Program-made: the position numbers and the translations under genes
From: Candidatus Bathyarchaeota archaeon
Lineage (GTDB): Archaea; Thermoproteota; Bathyarchaeia; Bathyarchaeales; Bathycorpusculaceae
Assembly (NCBI GenBank): GCA_963715865.1
Contig: OY970280.1
Location: 1,056,001-1,120,000, forward strand
Reading direction: 5' to 3'
Length of the DNA stretch: 64,000 nucleotides
Shown: piece after piece, positions 42,481 to 54,865 of the stretch
Position numbering within the stretch: the first letter of the stretch is position 1
Layout: each line of letters begins with the position of its first letter
Notes under the pieces: model-generated
The model's input: the letters and a program-made list of their open reading frames with translations, nothing else
What the model was told of the DNA's origin: nothing
Database searches by the model: none

Positions 42481-42801
42481 ATGTCTGAAATCTACAAAAA
42501 AGAAATTGTACAACACATAATCAGAAACCTACTAGACATCCAACTATTACGAATAGTGCAAGTCCAACCAACATGGGGATACAAAATCAAAAAACAAGTA
42601 GAAGCAGATTTTAACATAAAACTAAGACATGGCGCACTCTACCCCGCGCTAAATTCTCTAGAACAAAAAGGCTTCCTTGAAAGCAAAAAACAAAAAAAAG
42701 ACGGACGAGCAAGGAAAGTGTACACTATAACAGAAAATGGCAAATCTTACCTGCAAACCTACTACAGCGTACTGCAGGGTCAACTTGATAGCGAAACATA
42801 A
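42481..42801 (+). CDS. PadR-family transcriptional regulator
   Basis: PTWGYKI...GALYPALNSLEQKG...RARKVYTIT. Confidence 0.92.
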   Translation: MSEIYKKEIVQHIIRNLLDIQLLRIVQVQPTWGYKIKKQVEADFNIKLRHGALYPALNSLEQKGFLESKKQKKDGRARKVYTITENGKSYLQTYYSVLQGQLDSET

Positions 42802-42965
42802 AAACCAATTAAGCCCAATTTCACCGCTTTTATTTGTCAACCAATCAGTCATAAAATTTTGAGTTTTTGATACATAGTTTAACATGCCGACTAACATAGC
42901 CTTTGAATAAGCATGAAAAAGCTTTTATTCTAAGTAAGATGACAAAAAATTAGAGGAAAAAACAA

Positions 42966-43634
42966 ATGACTCTTGAATCAAGCAAAATCTTAGGCTGCAT
43001 AGGCGCAATACTAATGCTAATAGGCTCATTGGTTACTAGCTATACTTTTGGCATTCTTGACCTTGTTGGTGTAATACTCGTTTTGGTTGCACTGAACGGT
43101 TTAGCGAACAATTATAAAGAAAGAGGTATATTCACTAATGCACTTTACAGTCTCGTTGCAGGCATAGTGGGCGTAGTAGGGGCAGTTGCGGCGGCTCTCT
43201 ACATAGTTTTTGACACGACCATATTAACAAGTTTACTTCAGAAGCTTTATCCGTCTTGGAATGGCAGTTGGTCAACAATTTCGTCACTTTCAGGCTTAAC
43301 GCCCAACACCTCGAACATAACCGCAAGCGACGCCATGCCTATAATAAGCGCACTATTTTTAGTGTTAGTCGTACTTTGGATTTTCACCATAATTGCAGCT
43401 TTCTTCGCTAGACGATCACTGAAAGCTCTTTCAGCCAAAGCGAGTGTAGGTTTATTCTCAACTGCTGCTCTACTGTTATTCATAGGTGCATTTCTAACAA
43501 TAATTCTCATAGGATTCCTTCTAATCTGGATCGCTGTACTGTTGATTGCGATTGCCTTTTTCCAAATAAAACCGCAGCCAGAACAACCAGTAGCAACAAT
43601 GGCTCCTCCGCCGTTAACACCAACGCCAGTCTAA
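42966..43634 (+). CDS. DUF996-like membrane protein
   Basis: MTLESSKILGCIGAILMLIG...IFTNALYS...LIAIAFFQI. Confidence 0.8.
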   Translation: MTLESSKILGCIGAILMLIGSLVTSYTFGILDLVGVILVLVALNGLANNYKERGIFTNALYSLVAGIVGVVGAVAAALYIVFDTTILTSLLQKLYPSWNGSWSTISSLSGLTPNTSNITASDAMPIISALFLVLVVLWIFTIIAAFFARRSLKALSAKASVGLFSTAALLLFIGAFLTIILIGFLLIWIAVLLIAIAFFQIKPQPEQPVATMAPPPLTPTPV

Positions 43635-44346
43635 AAACCAAACAATCTCCTTTTTTTATTTAACAATCCTACTCATTACAAATGTCATCGTCATTTTTTC
43701 TATTTTCGTGAATAAGTAAAAGTGACAGCTTCCAAGGCGCAGGGTTTGTAAATCGTAAGTTTGTTGTTTTATCGATGATTAAATTGTTTGGGTTCATTTG
43801 TTGTAAGCATGGTTTAGGGGCAGAGACGTTTGTTCGTTTTGGTAAATGCTTTGTTCAAACAATCGAGTTAAATGCGGAGGCTATGGATGTTTGTCCGTTC
43901 CTCAAAAAGTTTTGTCTAGGCAATCCCTTGGGCAAAAGGAGCTTTTACCGTTGGAAATCTGAACTTGATGAGTGGGAAGCTCAAGTTGTACCGCCTAGGT
44001 CTTGTAGTTTCTGAAAAGGAAAACAATAGTTCATCATCTTCATCATCAACAAGCAGGCATTACGACCGCCTAGACTTGTGATTTCTGAGGAAACACTAGT
44101 GTCATCATAAACAACTGGTAAATCTGGAGAACCGACAGATGCCGAGTTGTCTGGGCAAAAGGTTGCATTCGCATTTACATAAACTGACTAGTTTACCTCT
44201 CAATAAAGCAGGCAGTTAAGTCGCTGGACCAATATTTACGCCCAAGCTAAATACTCCCGTCATGTTGAAAACAATCTGCATACATCCACCAAAGAACGTT
44301 TTGGAATATCACAAGGTTGAAATTTGGGGGACGATGTTTCATTCAC

Positions 44347-44368
44347 GGGGATGATGTCGCCGTCCCAG
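44347..44368 (+). repeat. att-like copy 1 (22 bp)
   Basis: GGGGATGATGTCGCCGTCCCAG. ATTCAC upstream is shared with copy 2. Confidence 0.9.
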
Positions 44369-44538
44369 CCTTAGGGCTTACTGGTTCTTTACTGTTTACT
44401 TGTGTGTTGTCTTGGTTTGTTATCTTTTCCATGTTTATATCCCTACACCGTTATTAGGTAGCTTCTCACATAAGCTTTATCTGGGCAAATACACGGGGTA
44501 CCCTAATGGAAAAAATAGTACTGCTAAAAATTTCAACC

Positions 44539-44652
44539 ATGAAAGGCTCTCGCATAGAGAGCGTTCCTCTAAACAAACTGCGATTATTGGCTGATGACAA
44601 GCACAGGTTCTGGTCTTTAGAAGGCGATTTCTTGGTGCTTAAATCCTATTGA
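44539..44652 (+). CDS. Micro-ORF paralogue A (37 aa)
   Basis: MKGSRIESVPLNKLRLLADDKHRFWSLEGDFLVLKSY. Mostly synonymous divergence from paralogue B. N-terminal frame uncertain. Confidence 0.5.
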   Translation: MKGSRIESVPLNKLRLLADDKHRFWSLEGDFLVLKSY

Positions 44653-44808
44653 TTTTTTTATTTCGTTTAGCGTAAAAGGCATAGCTTGCCGATGCTATTT
44701 AGGCATGTTTTACATTCCTATTTTCTTCGTTCGCACTGATATGACTTTTTAGAAAAAGTGGGGAAATATATTAAAGTCTTGAGCTGTAGTATTACCTTTG
44801 GTGGTTTC

Positions 44809-45018
44809 ATGTCTGAGGGTGTTCTCCTTACGGATGAAGATAGGGCTTTACTGGTAAAGGTAAGCGGTTTACTTGAGGAAATAGTCGAAACTTTCAGCAT
44901 ACTGGAAGATAAAGAAGCTATGTCTTGCTTAAAAAAGGCTGAAGCAGATGTCAAAGCTGGAAGAGTTAGAGATTATGACGCGTTCCTCAAGGAGCTGAAA
45001 CAAACTGGCGAAATATAA
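44809..45018 (+). CDS. RelB-like antitoxin
   Basis: Acidic 69-aa protein (ILEDKEAMSCLKKAEADVKAGRV) overlapping the toxin start. Confidence 0.8.
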   Translation: MSEGVLLTDEDRALLVKVSGLLEEIVETFSILEDKEAMSCLKKAEADVKAGRVRDYDAFLKELKQTGEI

Positions 45019-45262
45019 ACTGCAGGTTACGAAAACTTTTGAAAAAGATTTTCGAAAGTTTGATACCCAAACAAAACGGAGAATAGACTCAGCGATAAGA
45101 CTGCTTGAAGCTGACCCTTATGTGGGGAAGCCTTTGAGAGGGAATCTTGCTGGTAAATGGTCGATTAGAAGCGGCGACTACAGAGTCATCTATACAATAA
45201 GCGAAAACGAGAAAATAGTGCTACTTTATGACACAAGACATAGAAAGAAAGTCTACGAATAA
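45005..45262 (+). CDS. relE: RelE/ParE-family toxin (CTG start, missing from the ORF track)
   Basis: Manual translation: (M)AKYKLQVTKTFEKDFRKFD...DPYVGKPLRGNLAGKWSIRSGDYRVIYTI...HRKKVYE. Confidence 0.9.
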   Translation: MAKYKLQVTKTFEKDFRKFDTQTKRRIDSAIRLLEADPYVGKPLRGNLAGKWSIRSGDYRVIYTISENEKIVLLYDTRHRKKVYE

Positions 45263-45276
45263 CTCAAACAGCCAAT

Positions 45277-45378
45277 TTGTGTCACGAGTGTTCCTTTGAC
45301 AAATTACGATTGTTAGCTAATGATAAACATAGGTTTTGGTCTTTAGAAGGCGATTTCTTGGTTTTGCATTCCTATTAG
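45277..45378 (+). CDS. Micro-ORF paralogue B (33 aa)
   Basis: TTG start, (M)CHECSFDKLRLLANDKHRFWSLEGDFLVLHSY, 14 nt after the relE stop. Confidence 0.5.
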   Translation: MCHECSFDKLRLLANDKHRFWSLEGDFLVLHSY

Positions 45379-45394
45379 TTTTGTCGATTTGGAG

Positions 45395-45781
45395 TTAAAC
45401 GTTTGCAATTAACCTAACCTTTGTAGGTCTATTATGATTAACTTCAACAATCCTCAGGTACGCAAGCAGAGGAGCAACATAGGATGCTTGAGAGTGCTTA
45501 CTCTTAGTTTTAGTGGTTAACCGTAGGTACTTTTCAAGTGTAAAGTCATCAACATAGGAAGTAGCTTCATGCTTTGCTCCAATCTTAACCCAACTCTTGC
45601 CCTTAAGAAACTTTGGGATTCCATTGAAGCTGTCCTTTGAAACTTCGATTTCTATAGTTTTAATAAAGAATACCACTCTATCGGCTTCTACTGATTTAAC
45701 TGTAAATGGTTTGTCGTAATAGGGAGTGCCCAATTCTAAACCTGAATGTACTTCTTTTTTTATTCTATCAAATACTGACAT
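45395..45781 (-). CDS. Hypothetical protein (island cargo)
   Basis: ATG, 128 aa, no recognised motif. Confidence 0.65.
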   Translation of the reverse strand: MSVFDRIKKEVHSGLELGTPYYDKPFTVKSVEADRVVFFIKTIEIEVSKDSFNGIPKFLKGKSWVKIGAKHEATSYVDDFTLEKYLRLTTKTKSKHSQASYVAPLLAYLRIVEVNHNRPTKVRLIANV

Positions 45782-45797
45782 ATGGCATCCAACTTTT

Positions 45798-46274
45798 CTA
45801 TGGGTTACGTTCTAATTCAGCGATAGAGGGAAGGCTCTCTCCATTTTCAAGTCTATTCATCAATCTATTGATCCTTTCCAATAGCTTCCTATGTTCGCCT
45901 CTCATGTGAATTATAATATAGACTCCGCCAATAGCACTCATAATAAATGCTATATCACCACCTAAAACACTAAGTGTATAGTAGATTGTTACAGAAACAG
46001 TGATTAACAGTATTAAACCACCCGCAGCGATTGCACTCAAGAAATTAAACCATGATTCCTCATGGCTAGCTATAATCTGAACTTTCTGAAAATCGACCTC
46101 TCGTTTGGTATCCTTTGACTTATCACAAATTGAATCAAGTTTTTCCTTGAGAGCCTTTATAGTATCTAAATCTTTGCTAATTTCCTTCACTGCCTTCTCC
46201 AAATCACTCTCAGACATGTTTACGCTATTTCTCGGTTGTTTGAATTTAAAACTTTCTTGAAAGCTTCTTTCCAA
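45798..46274 (-). CDS. Hypothetical two-TM protein with coiled coil (island cargo)
   Basis: Coiled N-terminus, two TMs. Start may be MSES. Confidence 0.65.
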   Translation of the reverse strand: MERSFQESFKFKQPRNSVNMSESDLEKAVKEISKDLDTIKALKEKLDSICDKSKDTKREVDFQKVQIIASHEESWFNFLSAIAAGGLILLITVSVTIYYTLSVLGGDIAFIMSAIGGVYIIIHMRGEHRKLLERINRLMNRLENGESLPSIAELERNP

Positions 46275-46291
46275 AAAAGGTTAACTCTGCC

Positions 46292-46367
46292 GCAATCGAC
46301 AGAGCCCTTAGGTGTGTGGGGGTTGCCTTTTAAGGAGGGGTCATCCACTGCCTGAGGTGTCGATTGC
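46292..46367. other. Long nested hairpin (candidate ncRNA or DNA structure)
   Basis: GCAATCGACA/TGTCGATTGC, CCTTAGG/CCTGAGG, GTGG/CCAC, CCTT/AAGG. Confidence 0.5.
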
Positions 46368-46610
46368 TTGTAAGAATCCCCTAAGGAGTGTGGAGTTCTG
46401 GAGTTCAGGGCATCGCTGATGTACAGTTTCGGTTTGTCGTTGCTTCTTAAGCTGGGTAATACCTATTTTGCTTAAACATATCTATTACCATGAAAAAGCT
46501 ATATTTGTCCGTCTCTTCTTTGCTGATGATGCCTCTTTCTACCTACTAAATTGTAATAATTCGTGCAAAAAAATTAATATAGCAAAAACGAAAACCGTAT
46601 GCAGTCAGTA

Positions 46611-46722
46611 GCGCGGAAGGAAAGCAGGGAGCGGGAGCAACTCGGTGGTCTTTTCCCGCACACTGGCTCCTTAACGCGGTGGCTCAGGTGCTTGCTTCCT
46701 CGTACCTACGCGTCTTCCGCGC
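46611..46722. other. GC-rich multi-stem element (candidate ncRNA)
   Basis: GCGCGGAAG/CTTCCGCGC closing stem, inner GCGGGA/TCCCGC, in AT-rich intergenic DNA. Confidence 0.45.
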
Positions 46723-47138
46723 ATTTTCTACTTAAGACGAGGGCAGTTTTAAGCTTTGCTCTCATATCGAAGTTAATTGAGAGCCTGTCAATCACTAATG
46801 AACGCGAAGATTTTGGTCGTTTTTATGTCAATTTAGTATATGGATATCAATTTCTTTGTTGGAATATACTTAGAGAATTTGATGAATGCTGTTGTTTCAA
46901 GACCACATATATATAAAACTGTTCCATGAAGAAAGACAATAGCTTTCGATTGAATTTCGCAAAAACTATGTAAAATTTACATAAAGCGAAAATTGTCGTA
47001 ATTAATTGAACGCAGACTTTTCACATAACTATCAGAGTTTTATTAGGTAACTCGATTAGTTACCTTAATCACATATCCCTGCAACAAGCCCAATACGTTA
47101 ACAATATTCATATCTAACTGGGATGCTGTATTATTCAC

Positions 47139-47167
47139 GGGGGATGATGTCGCCGTCCCAGTCTGAT
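47139..47167 (+). repeat. att-like copy 2 (29 bp, identical to copy 3)
   Basis: GGGGGATGATGTCGCCGTCCCAGTCTGAT, followed by hairpin AGCGG-TTTC-CCGCT. Confidence 0.92.
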
Positions 47168-47364
47168 AGCGGTTTCCCGCTGTTCTTATTTTCTATTTCA
47201 GTCATTTTTCAAACCTCATTGGTAGATATAATCGCAATTTGGGCTTAAAAGGCTTGCTAACGCTGAATTATAGATTGGTAGAGCAAAATTAACGTTAATA
47301 ACGTGCGCCAGAGCTTTAGTTGGTATTATATACCAGTTAAGTTAAGAAACTAACTTGGTAGTGC

Positions 47365-48300
47365 ATGGTTCAATACTCAACACAAGAAGCAGCTAAGCGA
47401 ATCGGTATTAGTTTCATTACTCTGAAGAGGTGGATTTATTCTGGTAAAATCAAGGCGGTTAAGGATGAAAGAGGATGGTGGAGAATTGACGAAGAAGAGA
47501 TTGTTCGCATAGTTACTGAGGTACGCGGTACAAGGCAAGGGCTAGCAGAGAAAATTTTAGCTCTTATTTTCTCTAAGCGAGTGGCGTATCTTAGAGAGCT
47601 TCAAGTTTGTCTTGAAGAGGATTGCTTGCATAAGGATGTGAATGCTACTCTGGCAAGTCTTTTCAATGTGGGCAAGATTGACACGAAGTCAGCTTTTGGT
47701 GATAGATGGTTTTTCCCCAAAAGTTTGACTTGGGAAAATGTCGAGCAGACTGCTAAAGAGAAATTAGAATTAATCAATTTATATGTGAGTCATCCAAGAC
47801 GTTTTGAAAAAGACAGCGTCGTCTATATGGATTATTCGGAATATCTTGTTGAGCAAGCGTTAATCACAGCTTCGTATGTTGTGGTGTCAAAGGATGCTTA
47901 CTACTTCAATGGTCGTTCATATCGGCGAAGCTTGACCGCAGGTAGACCTACCGATTTGGACTTCATTGCAAAAGTTCCTCAAAAAGAAATCTTTGTTGGT
48001 ATTCAAGTGAAAAACAAGATGCAGCACCCTTCGCTTGATGAAGTTAACTCACTTTTAGATATTTGTGGCTTCTTAGGGCTTAAACCAGTCCTTGTTGCTC
48101 GTATAATACACCCAAAGACCTATGAATTGCTTAAGGAGAATGGCGGTCGTGCATTAAGGGTTAAACGGTACTTCTTGCAGCCGCCTTTTCCGAGAGATAG
48201 GTTTCAAGATATCGTCGGTTTGGGTATTCCTTTGGGTGTCTATAATCGGGCACCTGATTTTTTGGTAAATATGTTCAAGAGTTTACCTGCGGCTCTTTAG
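47365..48300 (+). CDS. Excisionase/MerR-like HTH fused to a PD-(D/E)XK-like domain
   Basis: YSTQEAAKRIGISFITLKRWIYSGKI...GWWRI, and PTDLDFIA...GIQVKN. Confidence 0.7.
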   Translation: MVQYSTQEAAKRIGISFITLKRWIYSGKIKAVKDERGWWRIDEEEIVRIVTEVRGTRQGLAEKILALIFSKRVAYLRELQVCLEEDCLHKDVNATLASLFNVGKIDTKSAFGDRWFFPKSLTWENVEQTAKEKLELINLYVSHPRRFEKDSVVYMDYSEYLVEQALITASYVVVSKDAYYFNGRSYRRSLTAGRPTDLDFIAKVPQKEIFVGIQVKNKMQHPSLDEVNSLLDICGFLGLKPVLVARIIHPKTYELLKENGGRALRVKRYFLQPPFPRDRFQDIVGLGIPLGVYNRAPDFLVNMFKSLPAAL

Positions 48301-48757
48301 CTGTTTACTGTATCATTTCTAAGCAGTAGAATTAAAATACAAAAGTTCTATTATTATCTCGCTTTTCTGTTTGTTACTAAAAAATAATTTTTTGAACTGT
48401 TTTAGCTTCACCGATATTAAAACACTGTATTGGTAGAGAGCAGTGCTCCTAACAGAGTTTTGCTCCGTAAAAAAATCTGAAAATGGATTGAAAACAATTG
48501 AAAGAAAAAAATATAGCTATAATTTTAAGAATGTTTCCAGAACGATGGAAGCAAGTAAATATCCCATAGAAAAAGCTCTGCCATCGAATCGCCTTACCCC
48601 GACTCTCATCATAAAGTGAAACAAATCTGCAAGGCTTCGTTGGTCGAGAGCAAAGAGCCTTTGATGAAATTTTTAATATCCAGCTTCGCCATTGAAAAGT
48701 TGAAAAGTGAAACTTAAAATCCTGAGCTATCGCTCTTTACTGAGTCTCGACCGCGCG

Positions 48758-49213
48758 CTAAAACTCCTCTCCGCTGCTTTTATGGAACTTCCCGTCTTTA
48801 CAAAGGTGCATGAGAGGAAAATCTTTTGGAACCTCTTTTCTGCAAACTGGACAATTTACATAAACAGGATGTTTCCAACCAACCGGGAAACCCCTCGAAT
48901 CTCTTTCTATTTTTTCAACAAATCTAATTCGTTCGTTTGTTGTGAGATTGCTTGAATTACGGTTCTTCACTTCTTCTTCGTGGTCAGCCATAATATGGTC
49001 TAAAGCTATGTTTTCAGCAAGCTCTCTCCCATACTTACGACCAAACATTTCACCGACAAGTTTTACTGTATTCGAATCATGTCTATATTGCCTGTGAGAT
49101 TGTGAATAGCTTTTGCTCGGTTCGTCAATATAACTGTGAATATCATCACCTCTAATACCATACCGCTTTAACGAATGCTGGCAATGTTCTTCGTGTTGAG
49201 GTACCCCAGACAC
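48758..49213 (-). CDS. His-rich hypothetical protein with C-terminal CxxC
   Basis: HEEHC...IHSYID...HRQYRH...LDHIMAD, CPVC. Confidence 0.65.
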   Translation of the reverse strand: MSGVPQHEEHCQHSLKRYGIRGDDIHSYIDEPSKSYSQSHRQYRHDSNTVKLVGEMFGRKYGRELAENIALDHIMADHEEEVKNRNSSNLTTNERIRFVEKIERDSRGFPVGWKHPVYVNCPVCRKEVPKDFPLMHLCKDGKFHKSSGEEF

Positions 49214-49598
49214 CTCTTAATAAAAAATAAAATTGGTATTGTTTTCTTTATAAGATTTGTCACATCTCATTTGCGAGCTATCTTTATTTTCCCTGTGTGT
49301 GTGAGCGCCAAAACATAGGTATTTGAATAATACAAATATGACAGCATTAACCAAACTTGTGTGTGTTGGCGAAAAAACTATGGTACAAAAATAATAAAAG
49401 CGTAGTTTGGTTGTGTGTGGTTGGACTATGGGTATAAAATTAATATCAGTTTTTAAAAAGTTTCACAAATGCTGGAAGGCGCAAAGTCCTAGAAGCATTG
49501 TGATATGTTCATCTTTAGACCCATGTTTCGCTTTTGCAGAATTTCAAACTGTTTTTTTCTCTGACTTGCAAAACTGAAAACAAAAAAAGGAGAACTTG

Positions 49599-49931
49599 CT
49601 ACTTGCAAGTTTTCTGAATCTCACTATTCAGCAATTTCAGCAACTTCGTCACGTCAGCATTATTACTGTAGTCCTTAGTTGCATCCTTGAAATTTTCCAA
49701 AGACGACTCGTTCAGCTTCTCCTCTTTACCTGCTTTTATTCCCGTTATAGTCAATCCTGTCAACAGCTCGTAGCGTAGTTCCACGAGTAGGCAAACCTTG
49801 TTTGATAGACTAAGTTTCGCATCGGCTTCAATGAAATTTTTTGCTGTGTCAACGGTCAAAAGTTTTCCGTGCTTCTCTTGTTCTTCCAGAACTTTTCTCA
49901 CACAGCCCAACTTATCAACCATAATAACCAC
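49599..49931 (-). CDS. Hypothetical protein
   Basis: 110-aa ORF with charged helical composition. Confidence 0.5.
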   Translation of the reverse strand: MVIMVDKLGCVRKVLEEQEKHGKLLTVDTAKNFIEADAKLSLSNKVCLLVELRYELLTGLTITGIKAGKEEKLNESSLENFKDATKDYSNNADVTKLLKLLNSEIQKTCK

Positions 49932-50412
49932 AAGCCATTATTGCGGTCAATACTAAAAGATGTTTCACTTAAGAAATGAATCCCGCATCTTTTTCTTCCT
50001 CTATGTCCAATTCCAAATTTAAAATAACCAGTATTCCAAACAACATCAGCGGTCCCCAAACAAAGAAGAAGAATAAGGATATCGCTGAACCATCAGCTAA
50101 TTGTCCAAAGACGAGAACAAATGGTGTTAAAAACCTTAGAAACAGTGTAAGCCATCAAAGTACCACTTCTGCATAGCATAGCGTCAAAACAAGGCTTTTT
50201 ATGAATTTACTGCGAGTTTTCATTGTCGCCTACCGCAATTTTTTTCAGTGGACACACTCCGTTTTAAGGTCTTGATTAGTTCAAGAACTCCTGCCGTGCA
50301 GCCGTCATTAAGTCGTTCAGTCACTTGCTCATCTACTTAGCGTGCGCAAGAAAGTGCGGAAAAGTAATTCTTTTCATTTTCATTTGTTTAAGTAAAATTA
50401 CTAACTGAACTC

Positions 50413-50811
50413 TTACTTAGCCCTCGCTATGAGCAAAAAGCCGACTAACGTAACCCCAAATATAACCGCAATCCATGCTATTGCATTATAGTACCACCAC
50501 ACATTCAAATGAGGAAACGTTAGAAAATCTCCAATGAAGGTTATTACACTGTTAATCAACAATATTCCAAAAGCAAGCACTGTAACTAAAGCCGCAAGTT
50601 TTGTCCACCTATGTTTACGCCGCATAATAGCCAAGCCGAGCGTTATGAACGCAATGATAACCCACAGAAAAGCTAAAGAATATATCCAAGCCGTGGCATC
50701 CCAATAACTAAAAATCGGATTAACAATAAACAGTATTGTAGCTATCAGCAATAATGACGCGCCAATTAATTGGAGCTTAGTCTTTTTACTGACCCTTAAC
50801 TCCATAGGCAT
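50413..50811 (-). CDS. Four-TM membrane protein (degenerate zinc ribbon immediately upstream)
   Basis: Four hydrophobic segments. In-frame upstream DFCPKCG. Confidence 0.65.
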   Translation of the reverse strand: MPMELRVSKKTKLQLIGASLLLIATILFIVNPIFSYWDATAWIYSLAFLWVIIAFITLGLAIMRRKHRWTKLAALVTVLAFGILLINSVITFIGDFLTFPHLNVWWYYNAIAWIAVIFGVTLVGFLLIARAK

Positions 50812-50974
50812 CTCAGCACCGCATTTTGGGCAAAAATCCGCTTTATCATCATTAACATCTTGACCCAGACTTAGGACAAACTCTAATGTTTTAGACTCCA
50901 GTCGGCGTTTCTCGTTGTGAGTATCTTGTATTTAGCTTTTTAAAATTTGTGCACTAAAGTTTAATCTGATTCCT

Positions 50975-51286
50975 CTACTTTCGCTTTCTGAATAGCTTGA
51001 CTCCATCTATTTCTGTGACGTACTCGAAGCCTTGCTCAATGAGATTCTGAGCTTCTTGCAATGTCTTCGCAGTAGCAGAATGATATTCATCGCCTTCAAT
51101 TTCAATTAGTTGCGTATATCTTAAAGTTGTCCGCAAGTCTTTATGCCCAAGAAGTCTTTTAACATGAAGCAAATCTTTTGTTCTATGATACTCCATTGTC
51201 GCCTTGAAGTGTCTGAAGTCATACAATCGAATGCTCTTTAAGCTCATGTCACCGTATGCTTTCTTGTTCATGTTCCAACATGTCAA
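50975..51286 (-). pseudogene. Tyrosine recombinase/integrase C-terminal fragment
   Basis: LYDFRH, LLGH, TTLRY (catalytic Tyr), tail EYVTEIDGVKLFRKRK. N-terminal two-thirds absent. Confidence 0.88.
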
Positions 51287-51321
51287 GAATACTTTATTTG
51301 TGGGGGACGATGCTACATTGT

Positions 51322-51387
51322 GGGGGATGATGTCGCCGTCCCAGTCTGATCGGGAAAGATGAAGAATTCGAGATTTAGACAGACCCC
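51322..51387 (+). ncRNA. Box C/D guide sRNA (D' guide fits 23S rRNA Gm2251); also att copy 3
   Basis: GGGG(G)-ATGATGT(C)-CGCCGTCCCAGT-CTGA(D')-TCGGGAAAG-ATGAAGA(C')-ATTCGAGATTTAGA-CAGA(D)-CCCC. Terminal 4-bp stem. TATA-like TTTATTT about 27 bp upstream. Confidence 0.75.
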
Positions 51388-51550
51388 AAATAATTTTAAA
51401 AATTCATTGGTAGATGCAATATATCTCTTAGCAACGGGAACGGATGTGATTTAGTCGTGATCTTCGGTGAAAACGTGTTAAGCGGAGTTGTTGCGGTAGA
51501 GAAACATGCGAATCTTTCAACTAAAGAAGTGAATAGAAACAACACCTATA

Positions 51551-51967: not shown

Positions 51968-52180
51968 GTTTGATTCTGTGAGGCGAAACAATCGGCAAGG
52001 TGATAGGCTGAGCCAACTACGACACCAACACAGGAAGCATATTCGCGGAAGTGGACCCAAATTTGTCGTCCGTGACAGTTTTACACAAGTTTTATAAACA
52101 AAATTCAATGAAAGAGAGAGCTATTGAGCGAGAGCAAACCTTACGCTTTCGTTCAAATAAAATTTAGGAGAAAAAGAAAA

Positions 52181-54865
52181 ATGCAAATTACAAAAAGTAA
52201 AACTGCAGCTATTGCTATTGCTATATTCTTAATGCTTTCGATGTCAGCTTCAATGATGCTTGTACCAAATGCTAGTGCACATACACCTGCATGGCAGATT
52301 CCAACATATGCCTACATACAAGGTTTGCCTAACCCGGTCGGTGTCGGTCAGTCAGTGCACATTCTCATGTGGCTTGACAAGGTAATAGATGGAGCAGAAC
52401 CAACCAATGACATTCGGTTCCAGAACTACAAGCTCACCATTACTGCACCTGACGGCACAATAACAACACAAACTTTTCCTGTTTGCACAGACCCAACATC
52501 AAGTCAGGGCTATACCTATACTCCTACCCAAGCCGGCACATACAATCTCACCTTTACTTTCCCAGGACAAGTGTACACATACACCGAACCAGTCATGAGC
52601 TTCTTCGGTCCTCCCGCGCCAAGTCAATTCATAAACGATACTTATGAGGCCAGCTCTGCGTCAGCAACACTTACTGTTCAGCAAGCACCAGTAGGCATAT
52701 ATCCAACTACTCCGCTTCCGACGGCGTACTGGACGCGCCCAATATACGGTGAGAACTGGAACTGGTATACGGTTTCGTCAAACTGGCTAGGTGCAGGTGT
52801 ACCAGGCTTCGCGAGTGGTTTCCCAGGTGATGCTGTAGGTCCTCTCACTGGCCATGTCATGTGGACAAAGCCGCTTGATATGGGAGGAGTTGTCGGAGGA
52901 AACGAAACTGTTATTCAGGGAGACACATACGCCGAGGGATCTGCATACGCTACTAGATACAGCAACCCAATAATAATAGACGGGTACCTATACTACACGG
53001 AACCAATATCACTTGCGGGTACCCCAGGAATGTTCGGGGGTACGGGTTATGGACCAACCGTCTGCGTTAACCTGCAAACAGGACAACTTATTTGGTCTCG
53101 GACTGATGTACCTGCGCTATCCTTCGGTTATATCTATGACGTTCAAGACCCTAACCAGCACGGAGTTTATCCGCCAATTCTAGTTGCAAGCATTGGAGGA
53201 TCCTTCCTTGGACCTCCAGTACCGACGACATGGGAAGCTTTTGATGCATACACAGGAAACTTTCTGTTCAACGTAACCAACGTTCCCTCGGGCACAACTG
53301 TACTCGGTCCGAATGGTGAACACTTGATAATTAGCCTGACAAATGATGGACCAATGACAATGACACCTTTTGGCCCTGTTCCTAGCGGTCCACCGCAGTA
53401 TTATTTGAGTGAATGGAACTCCTCTAGACTGTGGGATAATCAATACTCAGGGCCGTCAACAACACCAAGCGTAGTTCCACCCATTACTGACGGAAACGAT
53501 CCAAGCTTATATGACTGGAACATTTCGATACCATCGCTCAACACTATGACCTCACCACCTACTATAGAAGCAGCTTTCAGTGGTAATATGTTGCTTTGCA
53601 TGAGCGGCTCTTACCCTGCTGGTCCTAGTACTTTATTCAGTGCAGCAAGCAGTGCTCCCTACACGTACTTCACTGTCAATCTCGACCCAAGTAAAGGTGC
53701 GATCGGTTCAGTACCATGGACAAATACAGTTAGCGCACCAGCAGGCAACATAACTGTCGAATTTGTCGGAGCCGATCCAACGGCTGGTGTCTTCGTTGAA
53801 TACCATGCGGAAACTTTGCAATGGGTAGGATACAGCCTGACAACAGGCAAGCAAATTTGGGGTCCAACCGGCAATCAAACAGCCCTTGACTTCTACTGGA
53901 TGGGCTGGTCTAGCATGGCCGGGCATATAGCTTACGGGAACCTCTACAGTTGCAATGGTATGGGAGGAATAATCTACTGTTATAATTTGAAAACTGGAAA
54001 CCTAGAGTGGACCTACGGTAACGGCGGCGCAGGCAACAGTACTAACAGCGGTTTACCGTGGCCTGGTCCATATCCAACTATCATATACGCTATTGCCAAC
54101 GGAGTAATATACACGATTACTAATGAGCACACTTTCGAAACACCGATTTTCAAGGGTGCATTGTCACGCGCTATTAATGCTACAACCGGGCAAGAAATCT
54201 GGACTGTTTCAGCTGCCTCAGCCTCTTCCGGATCAACTGCTATCGCAGACGGCTATGCAACATGGTTCAACGGCTATGACAACCAAATCTACGTTGTTGG
54301 CAGAGGACCCAGCGATACCACAGTACAGGCACCACTGACTCAAATTACAGCAGGCAACAAAGTAGTTATACAGGGCACAGTGATGGATATTTCTGCGGGC
54401 ACAAAGCAAACTCAGCAGGCAGCAGACTTTCCAAATGGTGTTCCAGTTGCATCTGATGCAAGCATGAATGATTGGATGGGCTTCGTTTACCAGCAACAAC
54501 CATGCCCAACCAATTTCACAGGCGTTACAGTATCAATAGACGCTATTGATCCGAACAGTAATCTCATCCACATCGGCGACGCCACAAGCAATGCAAACGG
54601 CTTATTCTACTACACTTGGACGACTCCAAACATCCCAGGGGACTACCTCGTCACCGCAACATTCGCTGGCACCAACAGTTACTGGCCGTCAAACGCACAA
54701 ACCGCCATGACCGTACAAGAAGCACCATCAGTAGCACCGACCGCTACACCTCAATCAAACCTAGCAACCACAGCAGACCTAATGACGTACATAGCCGTTG
54801 CCGCAATCGCTATAATCATTGCAATAGCCATAGCCACAGTCCTCATGCTCAGGAAACACGCGTAA
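52181..54865 (+). CDS. Large secreted PQQ-like beta-propeller repeat surface protein with C-terminal TM anchor
   Basis: Signal peptide, Ig-like N-domain, repeated WxxxxG/NATTGQEIW blades, YDNQIY, TM then RKH. ATG at 52181. Confidence 0.88.
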   Translation: MQITKSKTAAIAIAIFLMLSMSASMMLVPNASAHTPAWQIPTYAYIQGLPNPVGVGQSVHILMWLDKVIDGAEPTNDIRFQNYKLTITAPDGTITTQTFPVCTDPTSSQGYTYTPTQAGTYNLTFTFPGQVYTYTEPVMSFFGPPAPSQFINDTYEASSASATLTVQQAPVGIYPTTPLPTAYWTRPIYGENWNWYTVSSNWLGAGVPGFASGFPGDAVGPLTGHVMWTKPLDMGGVVGGNETVIQGDTYAEGSAYATRYSNPIIIDGYLYYTEPISLAGTPGMFGGTGYGPTVCVNLQTGQLIWSRTDVPALSFGYIYDVQDPNQHGVYPPILVASIGGSFLGPPVPTTWEAFDAYTGNFLFNVTNVPSGTTVLGPNGEHLIISLTNDGPMTMTPFGPVPSGPPQYYLSEWNSSRLWDNQYSGPSTTPSVVPPITDGNDPSLYDWNISIPSLNTMTSPPTIEAAFSGNMLLCMSGSYPAGPSTLFSAASSAPYTYFTVNLDPSKGAIGSVPWTNTVSAPAGNITVEFVGADPTAGVFVEYHAETLQWVGYSLTTGKQIWGPTGNQTALDFYWMGWSSMAGHIAYGNLYSCNGMGGIIYCYNLKTGNLEWTYGNGGAGNSTNSGLPWPGPYPTIIYAIANGVIYTITNEHTFETPIFKGALSRAINATTGQEIWTVSAASASSGSTAIADGYATWFNGYDNQIYVVGRGPSDTTVQAPLTQITAGNKVVIQGTVMDISAGTKQTQQAADFPNGVPVASDASMNDWMGFVYQQQPCPTNFTGVTVSIDAIDPNSNLIHIGDATSNANGLFYYTWTTPNIPGDYLVTATFAGTNSYWPSNAQTAMTVQEAPSVAPTATPQSNLATTADLMTYIAVAAIAIIIAIAIATVLMLRKHA

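Follow-up and report, generated by a model that had tools for sequence, protein, structure and literature searches.

Integration of mobile elements into tRNA and transfer-messenger RNA (tmRNA) genes is textbook biology. For archaeal tyrosine recombinases, the only targets given in a 2021 review are tRNA genes, protein-coding genes, and intergenic sites, and the review describes pTN3-like integrases that target the 5′ half of tRNA genes, the regenerated gene being expressed from the integrase promoter (PMC8371274). We describe here a locus with a different kind of target. In a 64,000-nucleotide (nt) stretch of DNA (the window) from the 2.35-Mb genome (G000) of a peat-soil archaeon of the Bathyarchaeia, three direct repeats, each the 5′ half of a box C/D-type small RNA (sRNA) gene, bound two decayed elements, E1 and E2, both with remnants of a tyrosine integrase. 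The repeats are very probably the attachment (att) sites of two successive site-specific integrations, by members of one family of small elements (2 to 7 kb), into the 5′ half of the sRNA gene.

Judged by their description, the pTN3-like integrases of the Thermococcales are the closest functional analogue of this system. In both, the 5′ half of a stable RNA gene serves as the chromosomal site (attB), and the rebuilt gene would have element DNA upstream of it, including a promoter beside the integrase gene (int). The likeness is drawn from the description; here the target is a box C/D sRNA gene rather than a tRNA gene, and the hosts are mesophilic Bathyarchaeia. SSV-type (“suicidal”) elements, as described (PMC7253208), are alike in that the element site (attP) apparently lies in the int open reading frame (ORF) and integration splits the gene to both element ends. 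They are likened by architecture, from attP rebuilt in silico; here the split takes ∼15 to 35 N-terminal codons, and one integrase type (P0001) has its own start codon. Bacterial islands and phages in tmRNA (ssrA) or 4.5S RNA (ffs) genes also use a conserved small noncoding RNA gene as attB and restore it (PMC4383910; PMC12540744), but they belong to another domain of life and use another RNA class, the C/D sRNA here being a modification guide. The mechanism is well known; the novelty lies in the class of target, which recurs throughout an element family. Use of a C/D guide RNA gene as a recurrent, family-wide integration target seems unreported: full-text literature searches, with most subscription journals outside their coverage, gave no report of a C/D sRNA or small nucleolar RNA gene as an att site. 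A survey of Bathyarchaeia viruses did not map att sites, and a note on TIGER/Islander gave no target classes.

Bathyarchaeia are abundant and are uncultured or barely cultured. If the reading is correct, the locus represents an undescribed class of att site and provides a ready integrase/att pair for these archaea, which have been genetically intractable so far; an integrase this compact, whose defined 22-bp site is conserved throughout the order, could serve as a genetic tool. The preference of integrases for short, extremely conserved RNA genes would be extended to a new RNA class, a guide for methylation of the P loop, and the locus would offer a natural case of a mobile element replacing the promoter of an rRNA modification guide.

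Core repeats and the guide RNA gene

The 18-mer ATGATGTCGCCGTCCCAG occurs in the window at exactly 44351, 47144, and 51327, always on the plus strand and thus in direct orientation, and chance expectation is none, since 0/100 shuffles of the window gave a match. With its G-run, the core comprises 22 nt at copy 1; copies 2 and 3 (the latter over 51322 to 51350) have 29 nt in common, up to TCTGAT, and the likeness among the copies also extends ∼25 nt upstream. Past the core, the copies part. Copy 1 runs into the arm CCTTAGGGC and is assigned as the left site (attL) because this canonical arm follows the core at the attL of many relatives as well. Copy 2 departs after TCTGAT and has no C′ box, D box, or closing stem, and only copy 3 proceeds to the C′ box, a D-like box, and the closing CCCC. 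The sequence-only reading, which had claimed three direct copies with full C/D architecture in the rightmost alone, was accurate on both counts. Rather than being scattered through the genome, the core has four copies, the three described and one in an intact paralogous RNA gene (G000:601618) ∼500 kb away. No tRNA gene was found in the window, and no Rfam family matched in the window at its gathering score. Within the core, by eye, GGGATG and the inverse of GGGACG flank the 7-bp stretch ATGTCGC, which may represent the layout typical of tyrosine recombinase sites.

The intact gene specifies, in order, a GGGG stem, C box AUGAUGU (6/7 matches to RUGAUGA), a 12-nt guide, a standard D′ box (CUGA), C′ box AGAUGA, a variable second guide, CAGA, and CCCC, the terminal stem being GGGG/CCCC. 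Seventy distinct orthologues were collected, in which the 5′ half, C′ box, and end are constant; the extraction pattern required CAGACCCC, and the invariance of the 5′ half is partly by construction. The second guide differs among the variants in both sequence and length (10 to 17 nt). The first guide pairs at 11/12 positions (9 Watson-Crick and 2 G-U) with large-subunit (LSU) rRNA positions 2361 to 2372 (GCUGGGGCGGCA), a segment that we take to be the P loop of 23S rRNA. Its fifth nucleotide upstream of D′ faces the second G of the GGGG run (LSU G2365), which is presumably equivalent to Escherichia coli G2251. The residue equivalent to E. coli G2251 is 2′-O-methylated in all three domains of life. 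The core was found in 33/36 sampled genomes of the genus and, with one or two changes, in other families of the order, and genes for fibrillarin and Nop5 occur in the genome. These features make the target a plausible functional C/D sRNA. Among the sequencing runs listed as containing this DNA, none was of RNA.

Comparison with known guides gave weak matches: yeast snR67 was the best in Rfam (19.1 bits, E = 0.083; gathering score, 55 bits), followed by sR22 (15.8 of 40 bits) and snoPyro_CD (13.9 of 45 bits). The RNA resembles snR67 and its archaeal analogues in having a C box, a 12-nt guide, and a D′ box, with pairing to the P loop and the fifth-nucleotide rule leading to the second G of GGGG; snR67 presumably guides the equivalent yeast site, corresponding to E. 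coli Gm2251. It differs from snR67 in the low score, the CAGA box, and the varied second guide.

Integrases beside the guide RNA gene

Integrase genes occur next to the same RNA gene far beyond the window. By tblastn, intact genes of ∼315 amino acids (aa) adjoin it in relatives, and three of the encoded proteins (P0001, P0002, and P0003) score 29.8 to 48.3 bits with PF00589, against a cutoff of 27.1, and keep all catalytic blocks. When 185,579 species genomes were scanned with a profile, 80 loci were returned, nearly all in Bathyarchaeia metagenome-assembled genomes (MAGs) from peat, soil, and sediment. At 38/38 loci whose integrase is at least 44% identical to the reference, the sRNA core lies 30 to 110 nt upstream of int, in divergent orientation. 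Seventeen of these 38 have a second direct core copy 2.5 to 7 kb past int, followed by the conserved arm CCTTAGGGCAAAGTAATTT (CCTTAGGGCAAAG...) and not by the RNA. Core pairs 0.85 to 5 kb apart are present in 10/36 genomes of the genus, and 83 metagenome contigs carry the junction of core and arm (CCTTAGGGC). Intact integrases beside the same core, for which the sequence-only reading had advised a search, are thus found throughout the family. The closest match by sequence in the PDB was Pyrococcus XerA (4a8e; E = 4.7e-6); the matches listed included no chain of an SSV1 integrase.

In a maximum-likelihood tree, a branch with support 98/90 separates the 24 sRNA-adjacent integrases from the rest, and two subtypes, ∼45% identical, share the same sRNA site. 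Distant integrases (25 to 36% identity) lack the core, and most abut genes for tRNA-Ala(TGC), tRNA-Leu, or tRNA-Cys; the sister group of the sRNA-adjacent clade (n = 4) adjoins the archaeal RNase P RNA gene. The sRNA-targeting family is nested among tRNA-associated integrases, and because the tree is unrooted we can only infer the direction in which the target was switched. A wider proposal, to which we give an even chance, is that this integrase clade exchanged tRNA genes for stable RNA genes of other kinds, with one branch for the C/D guide and its sister for RNase P RNA, that the elements take over transcription of the guide, and that int is assembled only when the element is excised.

RNase P RNA (RF00373; 205 to 214 bits) lies beside sister-clade integrases at L087:5634-5939, L096:5673-5972, and L086:616-918. 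At the last of these, a partial copy of the end of the RNase P RNA adjoins an int gene, with the complete RNA gene 5 kb away. The gene for RNase P RNA may thus also act as an att site that is not a tRNA gene.

The window provides a second line of evidence, in that the two relics retain int exons at both ends. At E1, the exon MEKITNQDNTQVNSKEPVSPKAGTATSSP reads through copy 1, and the same frame resumes at copy 2 as ...GTATSSPVNNTASQLDMNIVNVL; joined, the exons match the N terminus of L074/L176-type integrases. The flank 47091 to 47167, at the right end of E1, is 85 to 92% identical to the integrase-proximal flanks of L065, L074, and L083. At E2, the exon MTEIENKNSGKPLSDWDGDIIP reads through copy 2, and the frame resumes at copy 3 as SDWDGDIIPHNVASSPTNKVFL..., leading into a relic of L122 type. 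The two elements use different frames across the core, each that of its own integrase type. When attP was rebuilt in silico for 32 elements, the ORF ran unbroken from the other arm through the core in L074, L080, L152, L160, L176, L182, and L189, all with intact integrases, in three frames; the P0001 subclade has its own start codon and no continuous ORF across the core, and in L036 a short upstream ORF terminates on the int ATG. Because each relic keeps a frame-matched 5′ exon at its left end, attP seems, as in SSV-type elements, to be located within the 5′ end of int. Past the core there is an in-frame Met, and the integrated integrase copy, shortened at its N terminus, may stay functional. 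The strong conservation of the CCTTAGGGC arm would be explained by its encoding the 5′ exon of int, although binding by the integrase could explain it too.

Two other placements of the split were considered. An integrase 5′ part in the WDGD frame is absent at copy 1, where E1 uses another frame, and at copy 3 the frame that stays open through the core was rejected as a sign of a gene split midway, the true split being near the N terminus. The E2 integrase fragment abuts the core because ∼182 codons are deleted in frame: two-segment BLASTP and nucleotide alignments to L122 gave 84% nucleotide identity on either side of a 549-nt in-frame deletion (L122 6021-6569; ∼182 residues). What is left of E2's integrase matches the C-terminal part of PF00589 only (21.2 bits, E = 2.7e-4; cutoff, 27.1); it retains GHKDLRTTLRY, with His-X-X-Arg and the catalytic Tyr, and is without the first Arg and the Lys region. 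With ∼7 codons remaining at E1 and the deletion at E2, neither integrase of the window has the full catalytic set (Arg, Lys, His-X-X-Arg, and Tyr). The source genome holds several distant integrase homologues and no intact sRNA-clade integrase; for that reason, E1 and E2 are now probably immobile. One distant homologue is full length (G000:C1:563859-564698; 32% identity to the L122 type) and lies ∼270 nt past the 3′ end of the 23S rRNA gene (560559-563585).

The following sequence of events is proposed. A tyrosine integrase would recombine a 22- to 23-bp core, GGGG(G)ATGATGTCGCCGTCCCAG, which comprises the G-run of the terminal stem, the C box, and the P-loop guide and would be common to attP and attB. 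After integration, the native promoter would stay on the truncated 5′ fragment at attL, and the full RNA gene would be rebuilt at the right site (attR), behind element DNA with a promoter-like A/T box. In elements of the E1 and E2 types, the int ORF would begin in the opposite arm and cross attP, and integration would sever its first ∼15 to 30 codons. E1 would have entered first and E2 then into the regenerated site at the right end of E1, both later losing their integrase by deletion and becoming fixed relics.

An integron-like platform, at which a resident chromosomal integrase captures promoterless cassettes at the core and the segments are not self-mobile, would share several of these features: tandem arrays reach three cores (in the window and L081), a 790-nt toxin-antitoxin segment stands alone between two cores in L081 and is 95% identical to part of E1, and the integrase is always at the sRNA-proximal end. 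Unlike in an integron (IntI, attI, and attC), however, the integrase is encoded between attL and attR, within the repeat-bounded segment, and differs from element to element along with the cargo, the two ∼45% subtypes occurring at one site, and sites without an integrase exist (the paralog, G011, and G001). The left arms carry the 5′ exon of their own integrase type, which fits a circular element with its own int, and no attC-like hairpin was seen, though none was searched for. We consider such a platform very unlikely.

It is most unlikely that the half copies are pseudogenes that arose by duplication or drift of a mobile sRNA gene or by recombination between paralogs, with the integrase a bystander. 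Archaeal C/D sRNA genes do move and duplicate, a paralog of the sRNA with an identical 5′ half exists in the genome, and a stretch resembling downstream host DNA is common to copies 2 and 3. Against this, truncation at the same nucleotide (after CCCAG) and the same CCTTAGGGC arm recur in dozens of species and in the metagenome contigs counted above, the integrase is adjacent at every close locus, and frame-matched split int exons would be unexpected from plain duplication.

Empty and occupied alleles

Successive insertion into the sRNA gene predicts alleles without the inserts, and direct repeats of the target core indeed bound integrase-bearing segments at sites with both empty and occupied alleles. 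In G041, another species of the genus, an upstream flank of copy-2 type (89%) meets, at the core, an RNA and right flank that have 97.7% identity to those at copy 3; by sequence comparison, this is the site in its pre-E2 state, lacking precisely E2. Contigs of two peat runs join 43636 to 51321, omitting 7,684 nt, at depths (73 and 173) equal to those of both flanks, while E1 and E2 DNA has a depth of at most 10 in the same runs; parts of E1 and E2 lacking contig cover in four peat runs were taken as uninformative. The ∼76 nt unaccounted for in the peat joint equals the size of the native promoter in G041. A different 4.8-kb insert is present in L203 between both flanks of the window locus (87 to 92%).

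The paralogous sRNA gene (G000:C1:601618; L001:1496-1560) is complete and has an identical 5′ half and P-loop guide and a different second guide. No integrase lies near it in the source genome. In contig L151, the left flank of the paralog (97% over 134 nt) is followed by the core and the CCTTAGGG arm, i.e., the site is occupied. The same paralog, vacant in the source genome, serves as attR in L176. Thus, empty sites, of which the sequence-only reading had suggested a search, were found in three settings, and its central proposal, successive insertion into a C/D sRNA gene with duplication of the 5′ end, is supported by integrase adjacency, junctions, alleles, and split exons.

The peat runs contain several strain variants of the locus at different depths, and variants misjoined during metagenome assembly could in principle have created the repeats. 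Such an artifact is extremely improbable. The junction at copy 1 recurs in independent assemblies (355-nt contigs of X2 and X4 over 44023 to 44377; L203, at 87% over 42685 to 44379), as does the sRNA side, an 8.7-kb contig of peat run X1 covers 48557 to 51037, and the same architecture is found in unrelated genomes. The strain-variable hot spot could be useful for population genomics of peat archaea.

The intact RNA gene was also said to depend on upstream DNA from the element, and this agrees with the alignments. The 67 nt 5′ of copy 3 align at 90% identity with the integrase-proximal end of L122 and L042, which is of a different integrase subtype from the ends matched by the flank of copy 2, and because they match the L122 element end, the intact gene sits behind element DNA, with an A/T box at the position of the native promoter. 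Two features are kept among 69 attR-type and 80 attL-type flanks, namely, an A/T-rich box (−34 to −28) and GGGAnGnTG (−24 to −14), which suggests that the elements supply a replacement promoter for the sRNA.

Several observations weigh against two successive integrations into a C/D sRNA gene. (i) The D box is CAGA rather than CUGA in all 70 sRNA variants, and the sRNA reached no curated covariance model at gathering score, falling far below (19 versus 55 bits). (ii) The left arm of E2 is unlike the canonical CCTTAGGGC end and is host-downstream-like instead: its block 47206 to 47232 (27 nt) resembles host DNA right downstream of the sRNA (51394 to 51420) at equal offset (repeat D5). The arrival of E2 could therefore have involved homologous recombination; the E2 ancestor may have taken up the host downstream block by imprecise excision, or E2 may have come via homologous recombination. 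(iii) The empty-site joint is from Logan contigs with only 30 nt (k − 1) on the right side and the letters between not given, and matching of attL-type to full-sRNA flanks among genome representatives did not find the empty main site, giving integrase-proximal matches only. (iv) In IMG/VR, the junction pattern had no matches (0), and a search with the integrase profile gave two distant relatives only, with no member of the sRNA clade. (v) None of the attP-like contigs closes into a circle, and the attP-like junctions of L141 and L146/L177 could equally be tandem junctions. (vi) The recombination activity and crossover point of the integrase and the expression of the sRNA are predictions from sequence.

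Junctions like attP (integrase-proximal flank, core, and CCTTAGGG) were seen in L141, L146/L177, L173, and L190 and may derive from free circular forms. Two sets of candidate circles were rejected: L152, L176, and L189 are attL-to-attR contigs, and L146 and L177 overlap linearly.

Other features of the window and of related elements

Features of the island and its left flank are given in Table 1.

Table 1. Features of the island and its left flank, in window coordinates (E2 gene labels from Pfam and PHROG matches)
Feature	Position	Strand	Description
Host left flank	42966..43661	+	DUF996 membrane-protein gene and 3′ end; Pfam PF06195, E = 6.5e-28
Variable ∼660-nt segment	43662..44324	.	Stands in place of native sRNA promoter
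Core copy 1	44347..44368	+	Exact core; putative attL of E1; sRNA 5′ half (C box and guide) severed from gene
Element E1	44369..47138	.	2.77-kb decayed relic between copies 1 and 2; toxin-antitoxin cassette, ORFs, integrase remnant
E1 left arm, 5′ exon of split integrase	44369..44432	-	ATG at 44432; frame passes through core
Type II toxin-antitoxin pair	44758..45262	+	Upstream small ORF, 44758-45018; ParE/RelE toxin, 44999-45262
Two E1 ORFs	45395-45781, 45798-46274	-	
E1 integrase remnant	47043..47138	-	Core-proximal region and first ∼7 codons (MNIVNVL), from BLASTP and translation; remaining gene deleted
Core copy 2	47139..47167	+	Exact core and TCTGAT; hybrid junction, putative attR of E1/attL of E2; element-type upstream flank
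Element E2	47168..51321	.	4.15-kb decayed relic between copies 2 and 3
E2 left arm, 5′ exon of split integrase	47168..47232	-	ATG at 47205; frame passes through core
HTH_17 protein of E2	47365-48300		Pfam
DUF6915 protein of E2	48758-49213	-	
110-aa ORF of E2	49599-49931	-	
Membrane protein of E2	50413-50811	-	
E2 integrase relic	50975..51286	-	103-aa ORF; C-terminal end of tyrosine recombinase
Element-derived DNA upstream of intact sRNA	51255..51321	+	TATA-like A/T-rich TTTATTT ∼30 nt before G-run
Core copy 3	51322..51350	+	Putative attR; opening of intact sRNA gene
Intact box C/D-type sRNA gene	51322..51387	+	Core copy 3 plus remainder of RNA

On the left of the island, blastn synteny with L038, L039, L047, and L069 (78 to 88%) stops at 43661. 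The ∼660-nt segment that follows is included in the match to L203 and is missing in G041, where the flank meets the core after ∼55 nt, and in an X1 contig that joins 43641 to 44347. It holds a Cys-rich 79-aa ORF (43775 to 44014) and may be the remnant of a third, older element that has lost its left repeat.

No Pfam or PHROG family matched the majority of ORFs in E1, E2, and the elements of relatives. The sequence-only account of the cargo stands in part: a ParE/RelE toxin (PF05016, 44.2 bits against a cutoff of 23), an HTH_17 protein, and a C-terminal integrase fragment are present, and no profile confirmed the “nuclease” half of the HTH_17 protein. The candidate antitoxin ORF of E1 had no profile match. 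The E1 region 44702 to 45342 is 95% identical to cassettes of L069 and L081 at the same locus and, with the mini-segment of L081, indicates that the toxin-antitoxin cassette seems to move between elements. Direct repeats of 84 nt (44573 to 44656 and 45299 to 45382; 81% identical) flank the cassette. The 8.7-kb X1 contig is E2-like over the interval given above, skips or replaces 47256 to 48556, with the gene for the HTH protein, and diverges past 51037; therefore, variant E2 elements circulate.

Contigs L057, L059, L072, and L093, each with a Bathyarchaeia integrase and the sRNA, are filed as MAGs of Methanocella, Sulfotelmatobacter, Pirellulales, and Thermotogae, probably through binning errors in public records. 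An intact 6.6-kb element encodes a 347-aa Cys-rich protein (L189:2215-3258) with an HFHVL motif, noted by eye, reminiscent of rolling-circle Rep; this possible Rep had no Pfam or PHROG match. To the right of the island, 52124 to 54865 encodes a 913-aa surface-type protein with many paralogs in the genome and genus, and the G+C content of this gene is 0.48 to 0.50, versus 0.35 to 0.42 for the island.

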